In this document: piece by piece, positions 39,902 to 63,630 of the stretch
Numbering within the stretch: position 1 is the first letter of the stretch
Layout: the number at the start of each line of letters is the position of its first letter
NCBI GenBank assembly: GCA_963823495.1
Contig: CAWGLV010000001.1
Coordinates: 1,604,636-1,668,635 of the forward strand
Direction: 5' to 3'
From: an uncultured Microthrixaceae bacterium
GTDB taxonomy: Bacteria; Actinomycetota; Acidimicrobiia; Acidimicrobiales; DATDAH01
Length of the DNA: 64,000 bases
Program-made: the position numbers and the translations under genes
The notes under the pieces: generated by a model
What the model saw: only the letters and a program-made list of their open reading frames with translations
Database searches by the model: none
What the model was told of the DNA's origin: nothing

Positions 39902-41596
39902 GTGAGCGACGAGAGCGTTGTCGGGGGCCTGAAGCCCCGTTCCCGAGAGGTCACCGACGGCTACGAGCGGGCCCCGGCCCGGGCCATGCTGCGGGCGGTC
40001 GGCATGACCGACGACGACTGGGAGAAGCCCCAGGTGGCGGTGGCGTCGTCCTGGAACGAGGTGACGCCGTGCAACCTGCCCCTCGACCGGCTGGCCAAGC
40101 GGTCCAAGATCGGCGTGCGCGACGCCGGGGGCTTCCCCATCGAGTTCACGACCATCGCGGTGAGCGACGGCATCTCCATGGGCCACGAGGGCATGCGGGC
40201 GTCGCTGGTGAGCCGGGAGATCATCGCCGACTCCGTCGAAGCGATGATGCACGCCGAGCGCCTGGACGCCTTGGTCACCTTCGCCGGCTGCGACAAGTCC
40301 TTGCCGGGGATGCTGATGGCGGCGGCCCGGGTCAACCTGCCGTCGGTCTTCCTCTATGGCGGGTCGATCCTGCCCGGTCAACACAACGGTCGGGCCCTCG
40401 ACATCGTCAGCGTGTTCGAGGCCGTCGGGTCCTTCGCGGCCGGCGACATGGCCGAGGCCGAGTTGGACCAGATCGAGCGCAAGGCGTGCCCGACCGAGGG
40501 CTCCTGTGCCGGGATGTTCACCGCCAACACGATGGCGTCGGTGGCCGAGGCCATCGGCATGTCGCTGCCCGGATCCGCCTCGGCTCCGGCTCCCGACCGC
40601 CGCCGGGACGACTTCGCCTACGAGTCGGGCCAGGCGGTCGTCGAGCTGTTGCGCCAGAACATCCGCCCGCGCCAGATCATGACCAAGGAGGCGCTGGAGA
40701 ACGGCATCGCCGTGGTGATGGCCCTCGGTGGCTCGACCAATGCCGTGCTGCACCTGCTGGCCATCGCCCACGAGGCCGAGGTCGAGTTGGAGCTGGAGGA
40801 CTTCAACCGGGTGGCGGCCAAGGTCCCCCACATCGCCGACACCAAGCCCCACGGCAACTACCACATGACCGACATCGACCACATCGGCGGCGTGCCGGTG
40901 GTCCTGGCCCACCTGCTCGAGGCGGGAGTCCTGCACGGCGACTGCATGACGGTGACCGGCAGGACGATGGCCGAGAACCTGGCCGACATCGCCCCGCCGC
41001 CGCCGGACGGCACGGTCGTCCACCCGCTGAGCGATCCACTGCACGACCGGGGTGGCATCGCCGTCCTGCGGGGTTCGATGGCCCCCCAGGGCGCGGTGGT
41101 CAAGGTGGCGGGCATCGACGTCGACCGCTTCGACGGCACGGCCCGGGTCTTCGACGGCGAGGCGGCGGCGATGGAGGAGATCCTGCGCGGCGGCATCAAC
41201 CCGGGCGACATCGTGGTCATCCGCTACGAGGGCCCCAAGGGCGGTCCCGGGATGCGGGAGATGCTCGCCGTCACCGGTGCGCTCAAGGGCGTCGGCCGGG
41301 GGGCGGACACCGCCCTGATCACCGACGGCCGCTTCTCGGGCGGGACCCACGGCTTCTGTGTGGGCCACGTCGCCCCCGAGGCCGTCGACGGTGGTCCCAT
41401 CGCCTTCGTGGCCGACGGGGACCGCATCACCATCGACACGGTCAGCCACGTCATGGACCTGCACGTCGACGACGCCACCCTCGAGGCCCGCAGGACCGAC
41501 TGGAAGATCCCCGAGCCCCGCTACACCCGCGGCATCCTGGCCAAGTACGCCGCGCTGGCCCAAGGCGCCGAGAAGGGCGCCATCACGATGCCCTGA
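39902..41596 (+). CDS. ilvD: Dihydroxy-acid dehydratase
   Basis: [24 protein letters not shown]..., [46 protein letters not shown]. Start moved to GTG 39902. Confidence 0.9.
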
Positions 41597-41656: not shown

Positions 41657-41695
41657 GGAGGCAATAAGGGGCGGAAGCCGCCCCTCATTGCCTCC
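41657..41695. terminator. Long hairpin between convergent ilvD and nucleotidyltransferase genes (bidirectional terminator candidate)
   Basis: GGAGGCAATAAGGGGCGG-AAG-CCGCCCCTCATTGCCTCC: 18-nt arms with one mismatch. No U-tract. Confidence 0.6.
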
Positions 41696-41745
41696 AACGA
41701 GGGGGATTGCCGCAGGAGGATGACGGGCCGACCGCCGGGGGGCCC

Positions 41746-42261
41746 CTAGCCCCAGGCGCCCGTCTCCCGGGCCTCGGGGGCCATCCAGTCGTGCCGGCCG
41801 TCCCGAGCGGCGGTGGCCGAGACCTCGGTCAGGTGCTCGGGCACCGCCAGGCGGTGCTCGTCCGGGACGGGCCACGGCGGCCGGGGCACGATCAGCGGGG
41901 TGGGCAGCCGGGCCAGGGCCGCAACGTGGTCCTCGACCGAGGCGTGGTAGCCGGGGTCATGGAGCTGGGCCCACTTGTCGGCGCCGACGATGACCACGTC
42001 GTAGGGCTCGGCGATGTCGGCCACGAGTTGGAGGTCGGTCACGACCACCTCCAGCCACGGGCGGGTCCGGCCGGCCAGCTCGATGGCCCGCACCCGCTCG
42101 CGGAGGCGCAGGGAGCCCTGGTCCTCCTTGCCGATGGCGACCTCGGAGATGACCAGGTCGACCCGGTCCAGGCCATGGGCCGACCAGGCGGCCTCGGCGA
42201 TGCCGAGGTGGGCGATGGTCAGCGGATCGAAGGATCCGGGGTATGCGGCTCGTCCTCCCAC
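41746..42261 (-). CDS. Cytidylyltransferase-like nucleotidyltransferase (PPAT/NadD superfamily, divergent HxGH motif)
   Basis: VGGRAAYPGSFDPLTIAHL parallels the PPAT N-terminus (RAVYPGTFDPITNGH). C-terminal EVSATAARDG parallels the ISST motif. Start set to GTG 42261 because the longer ORF (to 42378) would overlap the ilvB leader. Confidence 0.6.
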   Translation of the reverse strand: MGGRAAYPGSFDPLTIAHLGIAEAAWSAHGLDRVDLVISEVAIGKEDQGSLRLRERVRAIELAGRTRPWLEVVVTDLQLVADIAEPYDVVIVGADKWAQLHDPGYHASVEDHVAALARLPTPLIVPRPPWPVPDEHRLAVPEHLTEVSATAARDGRHDWMAPEARETGAWG

Positions 42262-42300
42262 TCCTAAGAGCTTGCCCCGGTCGAGCCGACGGGAGCTACG

Positions 42301-42348
42301 ATGCCATCGATGTCCCGCCGTCCCCGTCTCATCGTCGTAATCACCTAG
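42301..42348 (+). CDS. ilvB leader peptide [15 protein letters not shown] (15 aa)
   Basis: GGGAG lies 5 nt before the ATG. Five consecutive branched-chain codons CTC ATC GTC GTA ATC come just before the stop. The stop overlaps the first hairpin arm. Confidence 0.55.
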
Positions 42349-42410
42349 CGCACGCCTTCCCCCCTCGCGTGCGCTCACGACCTCCCCACGGGGAGGTCGT
42401 TGCAGTTTTC
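42347..42410 (+). promoter_or_regulatory. ilvBNC transcription attenuator (two hairpins + T-rich tract)
   Basis: Hairpin 1 AGCGCACGC/GCGTGCGCT (42347-42375). Hairpin 2 CGACCTCCC-CACG-GGGAGGTCG (42378-42399), then TTGCAGTTTTC. It sits 27 nt before the ilvB ATG. Confidence 0.55.
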
Positions 42411-42436
42411 GGCCCCACTACCCTTCGGAAGCGCTC

Positions 42437-44209
42437 ATGACCAGCAACGGCAGCAACAACGGAAGCAACGAGACCCTCAACGGTGGGCAGGCCCTCATCC
42501 GCGCGCTCGAACTGGAGGGCGTCGAGGTGATCTTCGGGCTCCCCGGTGGGGCGATCCTGCCGGTCTACGACCCGATCATCGACTCGCCGATCCGTCACGT
42601 CCTCGTGCGCCACGAGCAGGGCGCCGGGCACATGGCCCAGGGGTACGCCCATGTCACGGGCCGACCCGGGGTGGCCATGGTCACCAGCGGCCCGGGGGCC
42701 ACCAACATCGTCACGCCGCTGTGCGACGCCTTCATGGACTCGATCCCGATGGTGGTGATCAGCGGCCAGGTGGCCTCGGCGGCCATCGGCAGTGACGCCT
42801 TCCAGGAGTGCGACACCACCGGGATCACCCAGTCGGTGACCAAGCACAACTTCCTGGTGACCTCGGCGGCCGACATCCCGCGGACCATCCGCGAGGCGTT
42901 CCACATCGCCACGACGGGACGACCGGGCCCGGTCCTGGTCGACATCCCCAAGGACATCGTCGACCCCCAGCACCCGAACTCCGCCCTGGAGTGGTACTGG
43001 CCCGAGGAGCTGGACCTGCCGGGCTACAACCCGACCACCAAGGGTCATCCGAAGATGATCCGCCAGGCGGCGGAGCTGATCAGCCAGAGCCGGCGCCCGG
43101 TCATCTATGCCGGCGGCGGCATCCTCAAGGCGAGGGCCGCCGAGGCCCTGCGGGAGTTGGCCGAGCTGTGCGACCTGCCGGTCGTCACCACCCTGATGGC
43201 CCGGGGCGCCTTCCCCGACAGCCACCCGCTGTGCCTCGGCATGCCCGGCATGCACGGCAACTACACCGCGGTCACCGCCATGCAGCGGTCGGACCTGTTG
43301 ATCGCCCTGGGCAGTCGCTTCGACGACCGGGTCACGGGGAAGCTGGACGGCTTCGCCCCCGACGCGAAGATCATCCACGTCGACATCGACCCCGCCGAGC
43401 TGGGCAAGGTCCGGCGGCCCGACGTCCCGATCGTGGGGGACTGCCGCCTGGTGATCGAGGCGCTGGTCGAGGTCCTCGAGGCCAAAGGTGGTCTCGAGTC
43501 CCAGCCCGATCGCAGCGAGTGGCGGTCGACCCTCAGCGGGTGGCAGGAGACCTACCCCTTGACCTACCAGCCCTCCGAGCCCGGCGAGGGGCTCAAGCCC
43601 CAGTACGTGCTCGAGCAACTGCGGGACCTGAACCCCGAGGACACCATCGTGGTGTCCGGGGTCGGCCAGCACCAGATGTGGACCAGCCAGTACTGGCGGT
43701 TCGAGGAGCCCTACACCTGGGTCAACTCCGGTGGCCTCGGCACCATGGGCTTCTCGGTGCCCGCCGCCATCGGGGCCAAGGTCGGGCGGCCGGACAAGAC
43801 GGTGTGGGCCGTCGATGGTGACGGGTGCTTCCAGATGACGGCCCAGGAGCTGGTGACCGCCGCCGCCGAGCGGATCCCGGTCAAGGTGGCGATCCTGAAC
43901 AACGCCTATCTCGGCATGGTCCGCCAGTGGCAGGAGATGTTCTACGACGAGCGCTACAGCGAGGTGTACCTGTCACCGGACCTGCCCGACTACGTCAAGT
44001 GGGCCGAGGCCATGGGCTGTGTCGGTCTCCGGGCGGAGTCCCCCGAGGAGGTCGTCCCGATCATCGAGAAGGCCAACGCCATCAACGACCGGCCGGTCGT
44101 CATCGACTTCCGGACCGACGCCCGGGAGAAGGTGTACCCGATGGTCGCCTCGGGGACGACGAATGACACGATCATCGTCGACCCGACCCAGGGCGAGGGT
44201 GGCCACTGA
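42437..44209 (+). CDS. ilvB: Acetolactate synthase large (catalytic) subunit
   Basis: 590 aa. TPP enzyme blocks [45 protein letters not shown]. Confidence 0.95.
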
Positions 44210-44727
44210 TGCCCGCGCTCACCCACACCGGTGGCGCTCGTACCCACACGCTCTCGGTCCTGGTCGAGAACCGGGCGGGTGTCCTCACCCGCATCGCCGG
44301 CATGTTCGCCCGGCGGGGGTTCAACATCTACTCCCTCGCCGTCGCCCCCACCGACGACGAGCGCTTCAGCCGGATCACGATCGTGGTCGACGTGGAGTCC
44401 AAGCCCCTCGAGCAGATCACCAAGCAGCTGCACAAGCTGATCAACGTCATCAAGATCAGCGAGCTGGGCCCGGGCGAGGCCGTCGAGCGGGAGCTCATGT
44501 TGGTCACCCTGAAGGCCCCGCCCGAGACCCGGGGGCAGGTCATGGAGCTGGCTCAGCTCTACGACGCCGAGGTCCTCGACGTCGGGGTCGATTCGATGAC
44601 CGTCAGCCTGGACGACGAACCGGGGCGCATCGACGACTTCGAGGAGCTGTGCCGGCCCTACGGCATCGTCACCGTCCAGCGCACCGGCCGGGTCGCCCTG
44701 CCGGTGCTCACCAAGGCCCCCCGCTAG
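44209..44727 (+). CDS. ilvN: Acetolactate synthase small (regulatory) subunit
   Basis: [36 protein letters not shown] domain. ATG overlaps the ilvB TGA. Confidence 0.9.
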
Positions 44728-44744
44728 ATCGTCAACCCACCCCG

Positions 44745-44771
44745 TTCTGGCGCCCGACAACGGCGCCAGGA
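44745..44771. repeat. TTCTGGCG-type palindromic repeat (hairpin) in the ilvN-ilvC spacer
   Basis: TTCTGGCGCC-CGACAAC-GGCGCCAGGA: 10 bp including one G-U. Followed by GACGCCTCAATCAGGCGCC, which is related to the repeats at 53708 and 53778. Confidence 0.7.
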
Positions 44772-44813
44772 CGCCTCAATCAGGCGCCGGTACGGCGTGG
44801 CAAGGAGAACAAC

Positions 44814-45839
<1,026 letters not shown>

Positions 45840-58793: not shown

Positions 58794-61370
58794 TCAGGAG
58801 GTGCGTCGGGCGAGGAGGCGGAGCATCTCGCGGGCGACCATCGGGCCGGCGTTCTGGTTCTGGCCGGTGACGAGATCGCCGTCGACCACCCAGTGGTTGG
58901 CGAACGGGTCCCGGAAACGGGTGGCCGACTCGAACCGGGCGCCGGCCCGGCGCAGCTCGGTCTCGGGGTGGAACGGCGTCCCTTCGATTCCCAGTTCGTG
59001 GACCTGCTTGTCGGTGACCCCGCTCACCCGGCGGCCCTCGACCAGGGGCCGCCCGTCGGGTGCCGTGGCCCGGCACAGGCCGAGGGGGCCGTGGCAGACC
59101 CCGCCCAGCACGGCCCCGGTGGTCGCCGCCTCGGTGACCTTGTCCGCCAGCACGTCGGAGGTGGCGAAGTCGAACGCTGCTCCCCAACCCCCGGCGAGGA
59201 AGACGATGTCGTAGTCGCTCATGTCGAGCTCGCCGATCGGACAGGAGTCGGTGACCTTGGCCCGCAACACCGCGTCGCCCAGGAAGCGATCGTCCTCCGG
59301 GGAACGGAGCACGGGTTTGAGTGACATCGGGTCGACGGGGATCACGCCGCCGGCCGGGCTGGCCAGGTCGACCTGCAGGCCGGCGTCGAGGAACAGGTAG
59401 TACGGAACGGTCATCTCGGAGGCGAACACCCCGGTTGGCTTGCCCACGTCCAGGACGCCGTGGTTGGTCGCCACCACCAGCGCCCGACGGCCGGGAAGGT
59501 CGAAGGTCGTGGCATCGGGGTCCTCGGGATGCATGCCCAGGCGCCGGAGCGCCCGGCGCAGCAACCGCGCCGGCCGGGGCGGGATCACGGGCTCGACGCG
59601 GGGGTTCGACCGGCGGGCCGCATACGGCCAGGGGGCGTTCCGCTCGGGGACGTCGGTGGCTCGCTGCTCCTCCAGACGGTGCCGGAGGAGGGAGAACACC
59701 TCGGCCGCGTCGGGATCGTCGAACCGGTTGACCGCTTCTCCGGGGTCGCGGTCGAGGTCGTAGAGCTCCCACTGGTCCGGCAGGGGATCGGTCCGGTAGG
59801 TGGGGCCGCCGAGACCTTCCGCCGCCCGGTGCCGGACCTCGGGCTCGGTCCAGGTGGCGGGGTCGTCGAAGGTCCGCACGAGCTTCCAACGGTGGCCGCC
59901 GCCCCCGGTGGCGGCCGTCTCGGCCACGCGACCGACGATCGCCTCGAAGTTGGCGGCGACGTGGGCCGGGACCTGGATGCGCAGGGGTGCGGGTGGATGG
60001 GCCGTGCGGTGGAGTCGCCGGGCCACCCCCGAGGCTCCGCTGTCGCCCTCCAGCATGTTGTCGCGGGTCATCAGGTAGACGGTGCGGTCCGGGTCCGGCG
60101 CCGCGCCGTCGACCACCGGCAACAGGTCGGTGCCCGGGAGGGGGTGGACCTCGCTGAAGTCGGTCGCGAGCTCGACGGCGACCGTCACGGGGTCGAGGCC
60201 GGCGGCAGCCAGCACGGTCGGGACGAGGTCGACGTGGGAGGTCACCTCCTCGACCCGCCCCGCCGTTGTGGGCCGGCTACCGACCCGGGCGACGGTGAAG
60301 GGGACGCGTGTGGCCTCGTCGTACAGGTTGAACCACTTCTGGTGCAGCCCGCCGTGGGCCCCCAGGAGCTCACCGTGGTCGGAGGTCCGCACCAGGACCG
60401 CGTCCCCCGTGGTGCCCTCGGTCACGGCCTGCCGCACCCGGTCGACGGCGCCGTCGACCTCGGCGTGCAGCCGGTGGTACAGGTCCCGGTAGGCCTGGGC
60501 ATTCCGGGAGTAGGCGCGGGCGACGACCGCGGGTGGTCCGTAGCCGGAGGGGTAGGCGGCCCGGTAGGCGATCTGGGCCGCGGGCTTGGCGGCGAGGTCC
60601 TCGTGCTCGGTCGGGGCCTCGGGGACCGGCGGGGGGTCGAGGGGCGAGGGCAGGTCGCCCAACGGCTTGGTCCGCACCCACAGCGGGAAGAGCACGATGT
60701 CGTGGGGGTTGACGAAGCTGGCCACCAGGCAGAACGGCACCAGGGCATCGGCGTCACCGGCCCTTCGTCGGGCGTACCGGTCCTCCAACCAGGCCACGAT
60801 GCGCTCGGCGATGAGGGGGTCACGCACGAGCCCACTGTTGGCCATCGACGGGCCGTGGGGCTCGGGTCCGACCCAACCGGAGAACCCGTAGGGGCCGAGG
60901 GGGTCCGCGTCGAGGTAGGCCCGGACCGCGGCCGGGTCGACGGTGCCGTCATCGCGGTTGGTGACCAGGGCCTTGCCGGTGGCGGGATCGGTGAGGTCGG
61001 CGTGGCTGATGTGCCACTTGCCGTCGTAGTGGGTGTCATAACCCCCGGCCCGCAGCCAGTTGCCCAGCGTGGGCACCTCGCCCGGCGGCAGCCAGCGCAT
61101 CCGGGAGTCGTCGGCCATCTTGCCCAGGCCGTCGGTCTGGGTCACCCCGTGCAGGTCGGGGTACTGGCCGGTGAACAGGGTCGGGCGGCTCGGCACGCAG
61201 GCCAGCGAGCCGGTGTAGTGGCGGGCGAAGGTCACGCCGTTCTCGACGAACCAACGTTCCCCGGCGAGGGTCTCCCGTCGCCAGGCGGCGACGGCGGGAT
61301 CCTCATAGGGCGGGGCGGCCCGCTCTTGGTCGGAGAGGATGATGACGATGTCGGGTCGACGGTCGGTCAT
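58794..61370 (-). CDS. Fusion protein: Cys-type sulfatase domain + DJ-1/PfpI (class I glutamine amidotransferase-like) domain
   Basis: N-terminus IVIILSDQ...ACVPSRPTLFTGQ (CxPxR sulfatase motif), TSDHGE. C-terminal ~260 aa LVVATNHG..., IVFLAGGWGA, GGVCHGP nucleophile elbow. Confidence 0.8.
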   Translation of the reverse strand: MTDRRPDIVIILSDQERAAPPYEDPAVAAWRRETLAGERWFVENGVTFARHYTGSLACVPSRPTLFTGQYPDLHGVTQTDGLGKMADDSRMRWLPPGEVPTLGNWLRAGGYDTHYDGKWHISHADLTDPATGKALVTNRDDGTVDPAAVRAYLDADPLGPYGFSGWVGPEPHGPSMANSGLVRDPLIAERIVAWLEDRYARRRAGDADALVPFCLVASFVNPHDIVLFPLWVRTKPLGDLPSPLDPPPVPEAPTEHEDLAAKPAAQIAYRAAYPSGYGPPAVVARAYSRNAQAYRDLYHRLHAEVDGAVDRVRQAVTEGTTGDAVLVRTSDHGELLGAHGGLHQKWFNLYDEATRVPFTVARVGSRPTTAGRVEEVTSHVDLVPTVLAAAGLDPVTVAVELATDFSEVHPLPGTDLLPVVDGAAPDPDRTVYLMTRDNMLEGDSGASGVARRLHRTAHPPAPLRIQVPAHVAANFEAIVGRVAETAATGGGGHRWKLVRTFDDPATWTEPEVRHRAAEGLGGPTYRTDPLPDQWELYDLDRDPGEAVNRFDDPDAAEVFSLLRHRLEEQRATDVPERNAPWPYAARRSNPRVEPVIPPRPARLLRRALRRLGMHPEDPDATTFDLPGRRALVVATNHGVLDVGKPTGVFASEMTVPYYLFLDAGLQVDLASPAGGVIPVDPMSLKPVLRSPEDDRFLGDAVLRAKVTDSCPIGELDMSDYDIVFLAGGWGAAFDFATSDVLADKVTEAATTGAVLGGVCHGPLGLCRATAPDGRPLVEGRRVSGVTDKQVHELGIEGTPFHPETELRRAGARFESATRFRDPFANHWVVDGDLVTGQNQNAGPMVAREMLRLLARRTS

Positions 61371-61816
61371 GGCCGTCCTTCCCGAAGGTGGCGGGCGAGG
61401 CCGGCGAGCATGCCGTCGGAGGCCATGGCCAGGCGGCGGGCGAGGAGGGGCGCGACCACGCGGCCCGGTGGCTTGGGTCCGGGGTCCACGGTGCTGGTCA
61501 GGGTGACGGCGGTCCGGTCACCGGACGCGAGGAGGGTCCATCGGTTGGTGGCCCCGCCCACGACCGGGGGTAGGCCCTCGAGGGCGTAGGTCAGCGCGCT
61601 CGGCGGGTCCCATTCGGTCACCCGCTCGACGAGGACGGTGCGTCCCGTCTGCACCCGTCGGGCCGTGCCGACGCCGTCGGTCTGGTCGGTCACGTAGCAC
61701 GAGTGCTCGACGTCGTCGGCCCAGGCGCTGAGGCGGTCGAAGGCGGCCAAGGCGCTCCACACCTGGTCCGGCGACGCGGCCACGGTGATCGAGCGCTCCA
61801 CGGCGGCGGCTCCCAT
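61367..61816 (-). CDS. SRPBCC family protein
   Basis: VERSITVAASPDQVWSALAAFDRLSAWAD. 149 aa. ATGA overlap with the downstream sulfatase fusion gene. Confidence 0.7.
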   Translation of the reverse strand: MGAAAVERSITVAASPDQVWSALAAFDRLSAWADDVEHSCYVTDQTDGVGTARRVQTGRTVLVERVTEWDPPSALTYALEGLPPVVGGATNRWTLLASGDRTAVTLTSTVDPGPKPPGRVVAPLLARRLAMASDGMLAGLARHLREGRP

Positions 61817-61872: not shown

Positions 61873-61901
61873 TTGACGTTTCGGCGATCGAGGGCGACAC
61901 T
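61873..61901 (+). promoter_or_regulatory. Candidate promoter of the leuA leader: TTGACG -17 nt- GACACT
   Basis: The -35 is a near-consensus hexamer. The -10 keeps A2 and T6. It ends 7 nt before ATG 61909, the leaderless geometry. Confidence 0.45.
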
Positions 61902-61908
61902 GCCCGGG

Positions 61909-61950
61909 ATGCGTTTCGACCGTCGCGCCCTGGACCTCCTTCTTACGTAA
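61909..61950 (+). CDS. leuA leader peptide MRFDRRALDLLLT (13 aa)
   Basis: 4 of the last 6 sense codons are Leu (CTG, CTC, CTT, CTT). The TAA is immediately followed by a 9-bp hairpin. Confidence 0.55.
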   Translation: MRFDRRALDLLLT

Positions 61951-62021
61951 GGCGAGCACCCCCATATCGGTGCTCGCCTCGCCTCCTGAACCCGGAAGGG
62001 TCAGGGGGCTTTTTCGTTTTC
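61951..62021 (+). promoter_or_regulatory. leuA transcription attenuator (anti-terminator/terminator hairpins + U-tract)
   Basis: GGCGAGCAC/GTGCTCGCC (61951-61978). CCTCCTGA(A)CCC-GGAA-GGGTCAGGGGG (61982-62008), then CTTTTTCGTTTTC. Confidence 0.6.
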
Positions 62022-62076
62022 GAGCCCGGGTCGCACGATCGACTCCATCCCCCCGATCCCCAGAAAGGCCACCTCA

Positions 62077-63630
62077 ATGCAGGACAGCAAGCGAGTCGTC
62101 ATCTTCGACACGACGCTGCGGGACGGCGAGCAGTCGCCGGGCATCTCGCTGGACGTCGGTGAGAAGCTGGAGATCGCGGACCAGCTCGCCCGCCTGGGGG
62201 TCGACTACCTCGAAGCCGGTTTCCCGGTGGCCAGCCAGGGAGACTTCGAGGCCGTCGAGGCCATCGCCAAGGCCGTCCGCGGCCCGGTCGTGACCGGTCT
62301 GTCCCGGACGGCGCTGAAGGACGTGGACCGCTGCTGGGAGGCGGTGCAGCACGCGGAGAAGGCCCGCATCCACGTGTTCATCGCCACCTCCGAGAACCAC
62401 ATGCAGAACAAGCTGAAGATGACCCCGGAGCAGGTCAGGACCGAGGCCGGCTCGGCCGTACGCCACGCCCGGGGCTACACCGACGACGTCGAGTTCTCGC
62501 CCGAGGACGCTTCCCGGTCCGACTTCGAGTTCATGTGCGAGGTGCTGCAGATCGCGGTGGACAACGGGGCCGGGACGCTGAACATCCCCGACACCGTGGG
62601 CTTCTCCATCCCCCAGGAGTTCGGCCGGCGCATCGCCGACATCCGCGAGCGGGTCTCGGGGGACTACGTGATCTCCGCCCACTGCCACGACGACCTGGGT
62701 ATGGCGGTGGCCAACTCGCTGGCTGCGGTCGAGGCCGGCGCCCGCCAGGTCGAGGTCGCGATGAACGGCATCGGGGAGCGGGCGGGCAACGCCGCCCTCG
62801 AGGAGATCGTCATGGCCTTGCGCACCCGGTCGGAGTACTTCGGCGGTCTGGACACCAACGTCCGGGCCGAGGAGCTGGCCCGGACCAGCCGCCTGGTCAG
62901 CCGCCTCACCGGGTACCCCGTCCAGTACAACAAGGCCGTCGTCGGCCGGAACGCCTTCGCCCACGAGGCCGGCATCCACCAGCACGGGATGCTGGAGGAC
63001 CGCACCACCTACGAGATCATGGACCCGAACGCCGTGGGTCAGGACACCTCGCTGGTCCTGGGCAAGCACTCGGGGCGTCACGCCTTCAGCGACGCGCTGG
63101 CCAAGATGGGCCTGACGGTGCAGGGAGATGCCCTGAACCAGGCCTTCACCCGCTTCAAGGAGCTGGCCGACCGCAAGGTGGAGATCACCGACGCCGACCT
63201 GGAGGCCATCGTCGCCGCCGAGCTCAACGTGGCCGCCGGCGATGCCTTCGAGCTGTCCAGCATCGAGTTCCACGGCAGCAACGTCGGTCCGGCCACCGCC
63301 CGGGTGGTCCTCGTGCGCACCGACGGCGGCGAGGAGGTCGAGGCCGCCGGCGAGGGGGACGGGATGATCGACGCCGCGGGCCAGGCGATCCGGGCCGCCA
63401 CCGGGGTCGAGGGCCGGCAGACCGACTTCAACGTGTCCTCGGTGACCGGTGGGGTCGACGCCCTGGGTGACGTGGTCATCCAGTTCGAGTCCGAGGGCAC
63501 GAAGGTGTCCGGCCGAGGCGTGTCCACCGACGTCGTCGAGGCCTCCGCCCGGGCGTTCCTCAACGCCGTCAACAAGGTGATCCGCATCCGCGACCGCGCC
63601 GAGGTCCGGGACATCGAGACCGGGCCGTGA
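62077..63630 (+). CDS. leuA: 2-isopropylmalate synthase
   Basis: VIFDTTLRDGEQSPG, HCHDDLGMAVANS, NGIGERAGNA, C-terminal LeuA dimerisation/regulatory domain. 517 aa. Confidence 0.9.
   Translation: MQDSKRVVIFDTTLRDGEQSPGISLDVGEKLEIADQLARLGVDYLEAGFPVASQGDFEAVEAIAKAVRGPVVTGLSRTALKDVDRCWEAVQHAEKARIHVFIATSENHMQNKLKMTPEQVRTEAGSAVRHARGYTDDVEFSPEDASRSDFEFMCEVLQIAVDNGAGTLNIPDTVGFSIPQEFGRRIADIRERVSGDYVISAHCHDDLGMAVANSLAAVEAGARQVEVAMNGIGERAGNAALEEIVMALRTRSEYFGGLDTNVRAEELARTSRLVSRLTGYPVQYNKAVVGRNAFAHEAGIHQHGMLEDRTTYEIMDPNAVGQDTSLVLGKHSGRHAFSDALAKMGLTVQGDALNQAFTRFKELADRKVEITDADLEAIVAAELNVAAGDAFELSSIEFHGSNVGPATARVVLVRTDGGEEVEAAGEGDGMIDAAGQAIRAATGVEGRQTDFNVSSVTGGVDALGDVVIQFESEGTKVSGRGVSTDVVEASARAFLNAVNKVIRIRDRAEVRDIETGP

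Follow-up and report, generated by a model that had tools for sequence, protein, structure and literature searches.

In Mycobacterium tuberculosis, the ilvB1NC operon is preceded by a uORF (upstream open reading frame) encoding LVVI with regulatory GUA, and its leader transcript is approximately 126 nucleotides (nt) long; replacement of LVVI with AAAA abolishes induction, and in the published model the folded hairpin of the leader serves as the antiterminator (PMC13236596). Leader peptides and terminators upstream of ilvB have also been predicted in Corynebacterium, Mycobacterium, and Streptomyces by Seliverstov et al. in 2005 (PMC1262725), and a pseudoknot termed the LEU element was reported upstream of leuA in most Actinobacteria (PMC1262725). 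The ilvB leader peptide of C. glutamicum is reportedly translated in the absence of a ribosome-binding site (Morbach 2000, cited in PMC4046766), and leaderless polycysteine short open reading frames (ORFs) act as attenuators in mycobacteria, where they form a Cys 'ribulon' (bioRxiv 10.1101/834739). In this article, a related element is described upstream of the ilvBNC genes in a 64,000-nt stretch of DNA (hereafter the window) from an uncultured Microthrixaceae bacterium of the class Acidimicrobiia (assembly GCA_963823495.1, contig CAWGLV010000001.1, positions 1,604,636 to 1,668,635). This element is most probably a ribosome-mediated transcription attenuator of ilvBNC, of the kind represented by the actinobacterial ilvB leader peptides.

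The element is composed of a short ORF closing on a run of Leu, Ile, and Val codons, a first hairpin (hairpin 1) at the stop codon, a second hairpin (hairpin 2), and a U-rich tail, all placed ahead of ilvB (Table 1). The initial annotation of this DNA had proposed a leader peptide rich in branched-chain amino acid (BCAA) codons followed by a terminator at this site, which the conservation described below supports. The parts that it named were all found in the DNA, namely GGGAG, a 15-residue ORF from ATG 42301 to TAG 42346-48, five consecutive Leu/Ile/Val codons near the stop, and the two perfectly complementary arms of hairpin 1; hairpin 2 was also found, extending slightly further than had been noted.

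A scan with the IlvB protein, taking one genome per species, collected 80 loci with 70-83% identity, nearly all of them from metagenome-assembled genomes of Acidimicrobiia, with Actinomarinicola tropica (86%), a cultured relative whose locus (L166) has the element as well, as the nearest named organism by IlvB. A short ORF ending in at least four consecutive Leu/Ile/Val residues stands upstream of ilvB in 58 of these loci, as exemplified by MHAYRLLVILT, MSTRTTLVVVT, and MSRSRLILVVVT, each followed directly by the stop; in the relatives, the ORF encodes 9-18 amino acids (aa) and its terminal run comprises about 4-6 such codons. The loci failing this simple rule mostly carry runs of three residues (for example, …DLVVPT and …TVLLT before the stop). 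Conservation of the mini-ORF, the lack of which the initial annotation would have taken as a refutation, is evident under a looser rule, by which a mini-ORF with a BCAA run was found upstream of ilvB in 61 of 76 loci, the corresponding figures being 1 of 76 for reverse complements and 0.6 of 76 for shuffled sequences. Additionally, a covariance model built from 53 relatives matched upstream of ilvB in 78 of the 80 Acidimicrobiia loci, in the window, and in six closer relatives. Searches against Rfam, including ilvB-OMG and the amino-acid leader families, gave no match over 42290-42436 even at E values of up to 10, and none of the matches reaching the gathering score across the whole window falls on the ilvB leader or the leuA leader described below.

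The spacing of the parts is nearly fixed among the 53 relatives analyzed. In every one of them, the start of hairpin 1 is within 0-4 nt of the stop codon's first base (1-2 nt in 46), 0-5 nt separate the two hairpins (1 nt in the window), and hairpin 2 is followed by a U-rich tail, which reads GUUUC(A/C)GUUUUCG or consists of plain U runs. No such constraint is seen on the distance to ilvB (49-207 nt), on the N-terminal portion of the peptide, or on the hairpin 1 loop, all of which vary freely. When both strands of the 64-kb window were scanned for this layout, defined as a stop codon, a hairpin 0-4 nt from it, a second hairpin no more than 5 nt further on, and a U-rich tail, exactly two sites were returned, the present one and the leuA leader.

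Both helices are also supported by covariation. Alignment with MAFFT and RNAalifold recovered hairpin 2 only, the right arm of hairpin 1 being misaligned, which was corrected by realignment to the covariance model. In the resulting model-based alignment of 79 sequences, changes on both sides were seen in 18 of 19 pairs (9 of 9 in hairpin 1 and 9 of 10 in hairpin 2), G-U pairs occur, and 94.5% of the cells of hairpin 2 are paired, counts that lean towards the model structure to which the alignment was fitted. Despite this, the many distinct pair types and the slid controls, in which the share of paired cells falls from 90.5% overall to 32-56% once partners are displaced by 1-3 columns, support both helices. 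The thermodynamic signal is modest, with a fold z-score of -2.33 for the region and 6 of 200 shuffles folding equally well.

The codon content of the leaders differs sharply from that of the genes they precede. GUA accounts for 63% of Val codons in the leaders compared with 1.6% in the ilvB genes of the same loci, an enrichment of approximately 40-fold, and it is present in 57 of 58 leaders; in the window, there is no GUA among the 126 Val codons of ilvB, ilvN, and ilvD. CUU and AUU are likewise enriched in the leaders. The position of these codons is constrained as well, GUA lying 3-4 codons ahead of the stop in 74 of 86 cases with 9-14 nt (mostly 10-14 nt) between it and the base of the downstream hairpin 1 in 67 of 79, and the last BCAA codon lying 7-8 nt from the base of hairpin 1 in 35 of 53 relatives. 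Such in-frame enrichment of rare codons is as would be expected of a sensor of tRNA charging.

The stop codon is also biased, UAG closing 53 of 58 leaders in comparison with 22% of long ORFs in the same loci and 3 of 78 ilvB genes, and the base following it is C in 44 of 58 leaders. This bias could reflect either the sequence of the hairpin base or selection for a termination that depends on release factor 1 and is possibly slow. As a separate observation, 23 of 58 ilvB leaders, and most of those of leuA, have Thr (ACC or ACG) as the last residue ahead of the stop, and a Thr codon also directly follows the GUA run in C. glutamicum; Thr may be a spacer codon, or it may belong to the sensed set as a precursor of Ile.

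Another account would deny regulation by translation altogether, with hairpin 2 acting as a constitutive or leaky terminator, or as a transcript-end or stabilizing structure, beside an incidental mini-ORF, or with the repeats acting as DNA operators. The element does lie in a divergent promoter region, and inverted repeats of this type could bind dimeric regulators. Furthermore, according to the summary given in PMC1262725, mutation of the candidate ilvB regulatory codons of S. coelicolor reportedly had no effect, a result that also counts against the attenuator reading itself. The BCAA-run mini-ORF is, however, conserved far above chance, its rare codons are enriched in frame, and the copy before leuA carries Leu codons only. 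In addition, pairing is kept through sequence change, with G-U pairs and changes on both sides, which points to an RNA structure rather than a DNA operator, and the element is also found at loci that have no divergent gene. An account without regulation consequently seems very improbable, and attenuation by a translated leader is the reading followed here.

In the mechanism proposed for this attenuator, scarcity of charged Leu-, Ile-, or Val-tRNA would cause the ribosome to stall with a codon of the run, especially GUA, in its A site. The leading edge of the stalled ribosome would then lie just short of hairpin 1, which would remain folded, and the polymerase would read into ilvB. When the tRNAs are charged, the ribosome would arrive at the Thr codon and UAG and unwind the left arm of hairpin 1, whereupon transcription would terminate and expression of ilvBNC would be low. 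We infer this stalling and read-through scheme from the ilvB1 attenuator of M. tuberculosis, for which the published model follows the same logic. Modeling of the window leader is consistent with it: when a ribosome footprint, taken as the A site plus 12 nt, was stepped along the codons, hairpin 1 was intact with a probability (P) of at least 0.97 for an A site on L7, I8, V9, or V10 (GUA), and it was lost from I11 to UAG. A ribosome stalled on the run is thus predicted to leave hairpin 1 folded, and one that has passed the run to open it.

Several results weigh against this reading. Masking, footprint stepping, and a helix scan of the alignment revealed no antiterminator sharing nucleotides with the terminator. 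Hairpins 1 and 2 have no bases in common and both occur in the minimum free energy (MFE) structure; masking of the left arm of hairpin 1 did not prevent the terminator from forming (P of 0.87 or more) in 52 of 53 relatives, and none of the ribosome positions tested in the window abolished it. A search of every column pair in the 79-sequence alignment brought up no further conserved helix, only trivial G-U pairing with the U-tract, and the columns of the codon run show no conserved pairing in this alignment that would form a hairpin of the segment 1:2 type with the regulatory codons. Lastly, hairpin 2 went undetected in a simple terminator scan on account of the interrupted U-tract of the window (UUGCAGUUUU).

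One fold peculiar to the window was considered and rejected as a mechanism. In the ribosome-free leader, codons 3-6 (42316-27) and GUCGU (42334-38, codons 9-10) can pair with the terminator arms, giving an MFE of -38.4 kcal/mol compared with -35.9 kcal/mol for the two-hairpin fold and reducing P of the terminator to 0.1-0.3. This fold was found in only 1 of 53 relatives, and its bases would be covered by the stalled ribosome.

The initial annotation had suggested a different switch, in which a 15-aa peptide is translated from ATG 42301 by means of the GGGAG, taken as a Shine-Dalgarno (SD) sequence, and the loop of hairpin 1 pairs with the right arm of hairpin 2 as an antiterminator. In the window, CUUCCCC (42356-62) is indeed able to pair with GGGGAGG (42390-96) at about -9 kcal/mol, and pairing of the P1 loop with P2a is the published antiterminator model for the ilvB-II motif of Corynebacterium (PMC10272879). 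Among the relatives, however, this pairing does not surpass that of shuffled loops (mean z -0.11), and 22 of 53 fall short of -6 kcal/mol, whereas the terminator hairpin averages -17.8 kcal/mol; some loops (for example, ACAUAC) lack any complementarity. The antiterminator is not borne out by these comparisons, and with the points on the start codon given below, the combined proposal appears improbable.

Another view is that hairpin 1 serves only to pause RNA polymerase, read-through being set by another factor such as a protein, NusA/NusG, or Rho. The end of hairpin 1 lies 10-16 nt before the right arm of hairpin 2, which is a suitable distance for a hairpin-stabilized pause; classical attenuators such as the trp leader employ a pause hairpin, and the failure to detect base-pair competition with the terminator fits a hairpin 1 of this type. 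A pause alone, however, would give the same outcome for stalled and non-stalled ribosomes. The BCAA run, moreover, is placed so that a stall would spare hairpin 1 while the next two codons would open it, which argues that its fold state is the signal, and the UAG bias is at least compatible with such a signal if UAG makes the ribosome dwell. We therefore regard a purely pausing hairpin as unlikely, somewhat less so than the proposal just discussed.

A way in which hairpin 1 could act without base-pair competition is steric. Folded hairpin 1, with a ribosome at its foot, would lie 0-5 nt from the foot of the terminator stem and would keep the lowest base pairs of the terminator from forming in the RNA exit channel of the polymerase, so that the polymerase would read on past it. 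Once at UAG, the ribosome would leave hairpin 1 as a flexible single strand of approximately 20 nt, and termination would be licensed. Antitermination by such a steric block is our preferred guess for this step, although of rather low probability, and it would account for three fixed spacings, namely those between the stop and hairpin 1, between the two hairpins, and to the U-rich tail. The UAG bias is compatible with it if UAG lengthens the stay of the ribosome at the stop, and a pausing role of hairpin 1 is compatible as well and may be additional to it.

The start of the leader peptide is probably ATG 42310 rather than the in-frame ATG 42301, on a leaderless transcript with the arrangement TTGCCC-19 nt-TACGAT-7 nt-ATG. 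This 12-aa reading is preferred because of the spacing of the TTG and -10-like elements and the rarity of SD-like motifs in the family. When the leaders are aligned on their ATG, TTG stands 37-39 nt before it in 47 of 57 relatives, and across the wider family an A-rich -10-like block ends approximately 10 nt before it; the six close relatives (88-93% IlvB identity) keep TTG(C/A)CC, GCCGAC, and TAC(G/C)AT, and the leuA leader of the window shows a cleaner version of the arrangement, TTGACG-17 nt-GACACT-7 nt-ATG. An SD-like motif, counted as any four-base GGAG, GAGG, AGGA, or GGGA, precedes only 5 of 58 leader ATGs in comparison with 35 of 44 ilvB starts, and is thus missing in 53 of 58 members of the family.

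Two observations favor the longer peptide from ATG 42301 over the leaderless start: GGGAG stands 5 nt ahead of it, so that a GGAG is present upstream in the window itself, and the ATG recurs in frame, with a G-rich stretch before it, in all six close relatives of the window's sub-clade. On the other side, ATG 42301 lies inside the conserved TACGAT, and its in-frame spacing of 9 nt follows from the fixed distance between the -10-like element and the start. A transcription start upstream of 42291 would, in addition, require a promoter within the divergent gene, which starts at 42261. The GGGAG and ATG 42301 of the initial annotation are present, and their role as an SD-led start is doubtful.

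A further site of the same design lies in the window, upstream of leuA, where the covariance model gave its only other window match (61930-62022, E 0.007). Nine metagenomic relatives of this leader keep an ending of …LLLT (or LLLI or LLLLM) directly before the stop together with the same spacings, the codons being CUC CU(C/U) CUU ACG UAG. Judged by this layout, the leuA leader is a second attenuator of the ilvB-leader design, and the presence of Leu codons only before leuA and of mixed Leu/Ile/Val codons before ilvB would be the amino-acid specificity expected of attenuators.

Table 1. Features of the ilvB and leuA leader regions, numbered from the first letter of the window
Feature	Coordinates	Strand	Details
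Divergent cytidylyltransferase-like gene	41746..42261	-	start GTG 42261; 171 aa
-35-like hexamer TTGCCC	42272..42277	+	predicted; TTG(C/A)CC kept in close relatives
GGGAG and alternative in-frame ATG 42301	42291..42309	+	GGGAG at 42291-95; would add MPS to the peptide; less likely
-10-like hexamer TACGAT	42297..42302	+	predicted; 19-nt spacer from the -35-like hexamer; contains ATG 42301
Transcription start	42309..42310	+	predicted; 7 nt after TACGAT; leaderless or 1-nt-leader mRNA
Leader ORF, preferred reading	42310..42348	+	12 aa; fits the modal length (11-12 aa) and form of the family (MSRSRLILVVVT, MTRRPLLLVVIT)
Regulatory codons CTC ATC GTC GTA ATC (L I V V I)	42328..42342	+	rare Val codon GTA at 42337-42339
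Leader stop TAG	42346..42348	+	overlaps the base of hairpin 1
Hairpin 1	42347..42375	+	arms AGCGCACGC / GCGTGCGCT (42347-55 / 42367-75), 9 base pairs (bp), 100% complementary; 11-nt loop; -15.4 kcal/mol (RNAfold); can be opened by the ribosome; presumed antiterminator and/or pause hairpin
Hairpin 2	42377..42400	+	arms 42377-87 / 42390-42400, 10-11 bp, 100% complementary; -19.4 kcal/mol (RNAfold); stem of the putative intrinsic terminator
U-rich tail TTGCAGTTTTC	42400..42410	+	interrupted U-tract UUGCAGUUUU
SD-like GGAAG of ilvB	42427-31	+	
ilvB	42437-44209	+	start ATG 42437; Pfam TPP_enzyme_N/M/C, three domains (thiamine-pyrophosphate enzyme)
ilvN	44209-44727	+	Pfam ACT_AHAS_ss, ALS_ss_C (acetolactate synthase small subunit)
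ilvC	44814-45839	+	Pfam KARI_N/C (ketol-acid reductoisomerase); GTG start, AAGGAG upstream
leuA leader	61873-62022	+	
leuA leader, promoter-like elements	61873-78; 61896-901	+	TTGACG-17 nt-GACACT-7 nt-ATG 61909
leuA leader ORF	61909 to 61948-50	+	ATG 61909; MRFDRRALDLLLT, then TAA 61948-50
leuA leader hairpin 1	61950-79	+	
leuA leader hairpin 2	61981-62009	+	followed by UUUUUCGUUUUC
leuA	62077-63630	+	

The operon under the control of the ilvB leader is predicted to be ilvB-ilvN-ilvC (42437..45839 on the plus strand). The gene ilvD, also on the plus strand, lies upstream of the leader, ends at 41596, and is convergent to the cytidylyltransferase-like gene. For the latter gene, on the minus strand, the initial annotation had argued for a start at GTG 42261 instead of 42378, and Pfam, homologue, and gene-call evidence agree with it. 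In the long 210-aa version starting at 42378, the first residue of the Pfam domain is number 46, homologues align from residues 43-44 only or have stop codons upstream, and in close relatives the gene is called at 170-176 aa, one of them having an ATG aligned to 42261. The conserved leader takes up the interval 42262-42378, and it is found as well at loci without the divergent gene.

Several smaller structures were noted in the surroundings. A long hairpin without a U-tract (GGAGGCAATAAGGGGCGG-AAG-CCGCCCCTCATTGCCTCC, 41659-41696) lies between the ends of ilvD (41596) and the cytidylyltransferase-like gene (41746) and is probably the terminator for both; its Rfam matches (mir-B6 and DUF1874) are weak and at chance level only. 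A 10-nt inverted repeat, CGGCTCGTCC / GGTCGAGCCG (42246-42255 with 42279-42288, 90% complementary), flanks both the divergent gene's start and the -35-like hexamer of the leader promoter; it may have a regulatory function at the divergent promoters or may have arisen by chance. The distal U-tract GUUUUCG (42405-42411) is complementary to the ilvB SD region CGGAAGC (42426-42432) over seven pairs, two of them G-U; this pairing appears in the centroid structure and is weak and unconserved, in a region whose invariance among close relatives leaves no covariation to assess. In the 86-nt spacer between ilvN and ilvC, a perfect 8-bp hairpin occurs at 44747-44770, reading CTGGCGCC-gacaacgg… and having the arms CTGGCGCC / GGCGCCAG. 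Elsewhere, a match above the Rfam gathering score to Ms_AS-5, a Mycobacterium small RNA, was obtained at 61155-61199 (+) with 61.7 bits and an E value of 6.5e-9, within long ORFs of either strand (minus, 58794-61370; plus, 59460-61589). No tRNA genes were found in the 64-kb window.

The kind of switch considered here is already known, and its member in Acidimicrobiia, which matches no Rfam family, was not previously described. The findings extend BCAA leader-peptide attenuation to a class that is mostly uncultured, amend two gene models, one in the start of the leader peptide and the other in that of the divergent gene, and bring to light a second attenuator of like design upstream of leuA. 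They also indicate that a sensing core of the form CU(C/U) GUA GUA is common to three actinobacterial lineages, represented by Acidimicrobiia, M. tuberculosis, and C. glutamicum. The mode of regulation of actinobacterial ilvB leaders has long been held to be 'not clear', and the comparison of approximately 80 sequences sharpens this point, in that the sole conserved switchable element is a hairpin abutting, not overlapping, the terminator. The link from hairpin 1 to termination poses the same puzzle in the M. tuberculosis system, where the hairpins abut as well. If the steric block were true, it would be a general mode of attenuation in Actinomycetota, given the gap-free layout of M. tuberculosis, and it could explain why classical antiterminators have not come to light upstream of actinobacterial ilvB.

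Classical enterobacterial attenuators, including those of trp, leu, ilvBN, and ilvGMEDA, are built of four segments, in which the antiterminator 2:3 shares nucleotides with the terminator 3:4 and segments 1:2 form a pause hairpin; their leader ORFs are led by an SD sequence, and the leu leader makes use of the rare codon CUA. The element of the window resembles them in its leader rich in cognate codons, its use of rare codons, its intrinsic terminator before the first structural gene, and its apparent use of ribosome position as the sensor. It differs from them in that no overlap of this kind, no equivalent of the 1:2 hairpin, and no SD site were found. The initial annotation had likened the element to the Corynebacterium and E. 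coli attenuators, and this likening does not hold: the overlapping antiterminator of the E. coli type was not found here, and the C. glutamicum leader is arranged differently around its regulatory codons.

The ilvB leaders of M. tuberculosis (L167), M. kansasii (L168), and C. glutamicum (L169) were retrieved and read for direct comparison. The C. glutamicum leader, AUG ACC AUU AUU CGA CUU GUA GUA GUA ACC … UAA, shares with the Acidimicrobiia element a Leu-Val-Val-Val-Thr core and two stem-loops, of which the second is the terminator, and the genome also has, as here, a sister leader of consecutive Leu codons before leuA (PMC4046766). Its peptide is the one reported to lack a ribosome-binding site; in the Acidimicrobiia, the spacing and the general absence of SD-like motifs fit the same arrangement, whereas the window has its GGAG. 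Its uORF, however, spans P1, which encloses the GUA codons, and approximately 11 nt separate P1 from P2, whereas the ORF of the Acidimicrobiia element goes no further than the base of hairpin 1 and its hairpins lie closer together. The pairing of the P1 loop with the right shoulder of P2a in ilvB-II of Corynebacterium (PMC10272879) has no conserved equivalent here, and the covariance model did not match the C. glutamicum leader (10 bits, E 0.85).

The candidates of Seliverstov et al. (PMC1262725) are alike in consisting of short ORFs with Ile/Val/Leu runs beside poly-U terminator hairpins and in having no obvious antiterminator, and Acidimicrobiia lay outside the coverage of that study. With respect to leuA, the leader-peptide attenuator of the window differs from the LEU-element pseudoknot of most Actinobacteria considered there. 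The polycysteine system of mycobacteria offers a parallel in that a leaderless short ORF with a sensory role opens the transcript of a biosynthetic operon and in the use of stalling on a codon run as the signal. It differs from the present element, whose conserved structure downstream of the ORF, a terminator hairpin followed by a U-rich tail, lies 26-200 nt before ilvB.

The most extensive resemblance is to M. tuberculosis, whose leader reads …AUG CUC GUA GUA AUU GGU CGG CGC GUU GGU GCC UGA. Its 11-bp hairpin (480-518 of L167) has its base 9-15 nt past the regulatory codons and is followed without a gap by the terminator (519-549); the two share no bases, and both occur in the RNAfold MFE structure. 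Both systems carry a Leu/Val/Ile run with GUA (CUC GUA GUA AUU there, CUC AUC GUC GUA AUC in the window, and CUC GUA GUA … in its relatives). In both, a stalled ribosome would leave the hairpin folded and a ribosome at the stop would open or mask it, and in both a terminator with a U-tract abuts the hairpin (with a gap of 0 nt there and 0-5 nt here), the two hairpins coexisting in RNAfold structures. The M. tuberculosis uORF continues for seven more codons, running through the left arm of the hairpin to a stop in the loop, whereas the stop here falls on the hairpin base; it has been treated as SD-led, and its attenuator has been validated experimentally, whereas the Acidimicrobiia element is predicted from sequence. 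As a side observation, the published transcription start of M. tuberculosis (for which +168 is the ilvB1 start) coincides with, or is adjacent to, an AUG located eight codons upstream, from which an in-frame ORF of 19 aa, MDKAGKPGMLVVIGRRVGA, can be read, and the mycobacterial uORF may be leaderless as well. The covariance model aligned over its full length with the mycobacterial leaders at weak scores, 17.7 bits (E 0.008) for M. tuberculosis and 19.4 bits (E 0.003) for M. kansasii under a rough calibration, a similarity too weak to prove common descent. In layout, the Acidimicrobiia element appears to stand closest to this M. tuberculosis type of leader, and apart from the types of Corynebacterium and E. 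coli.

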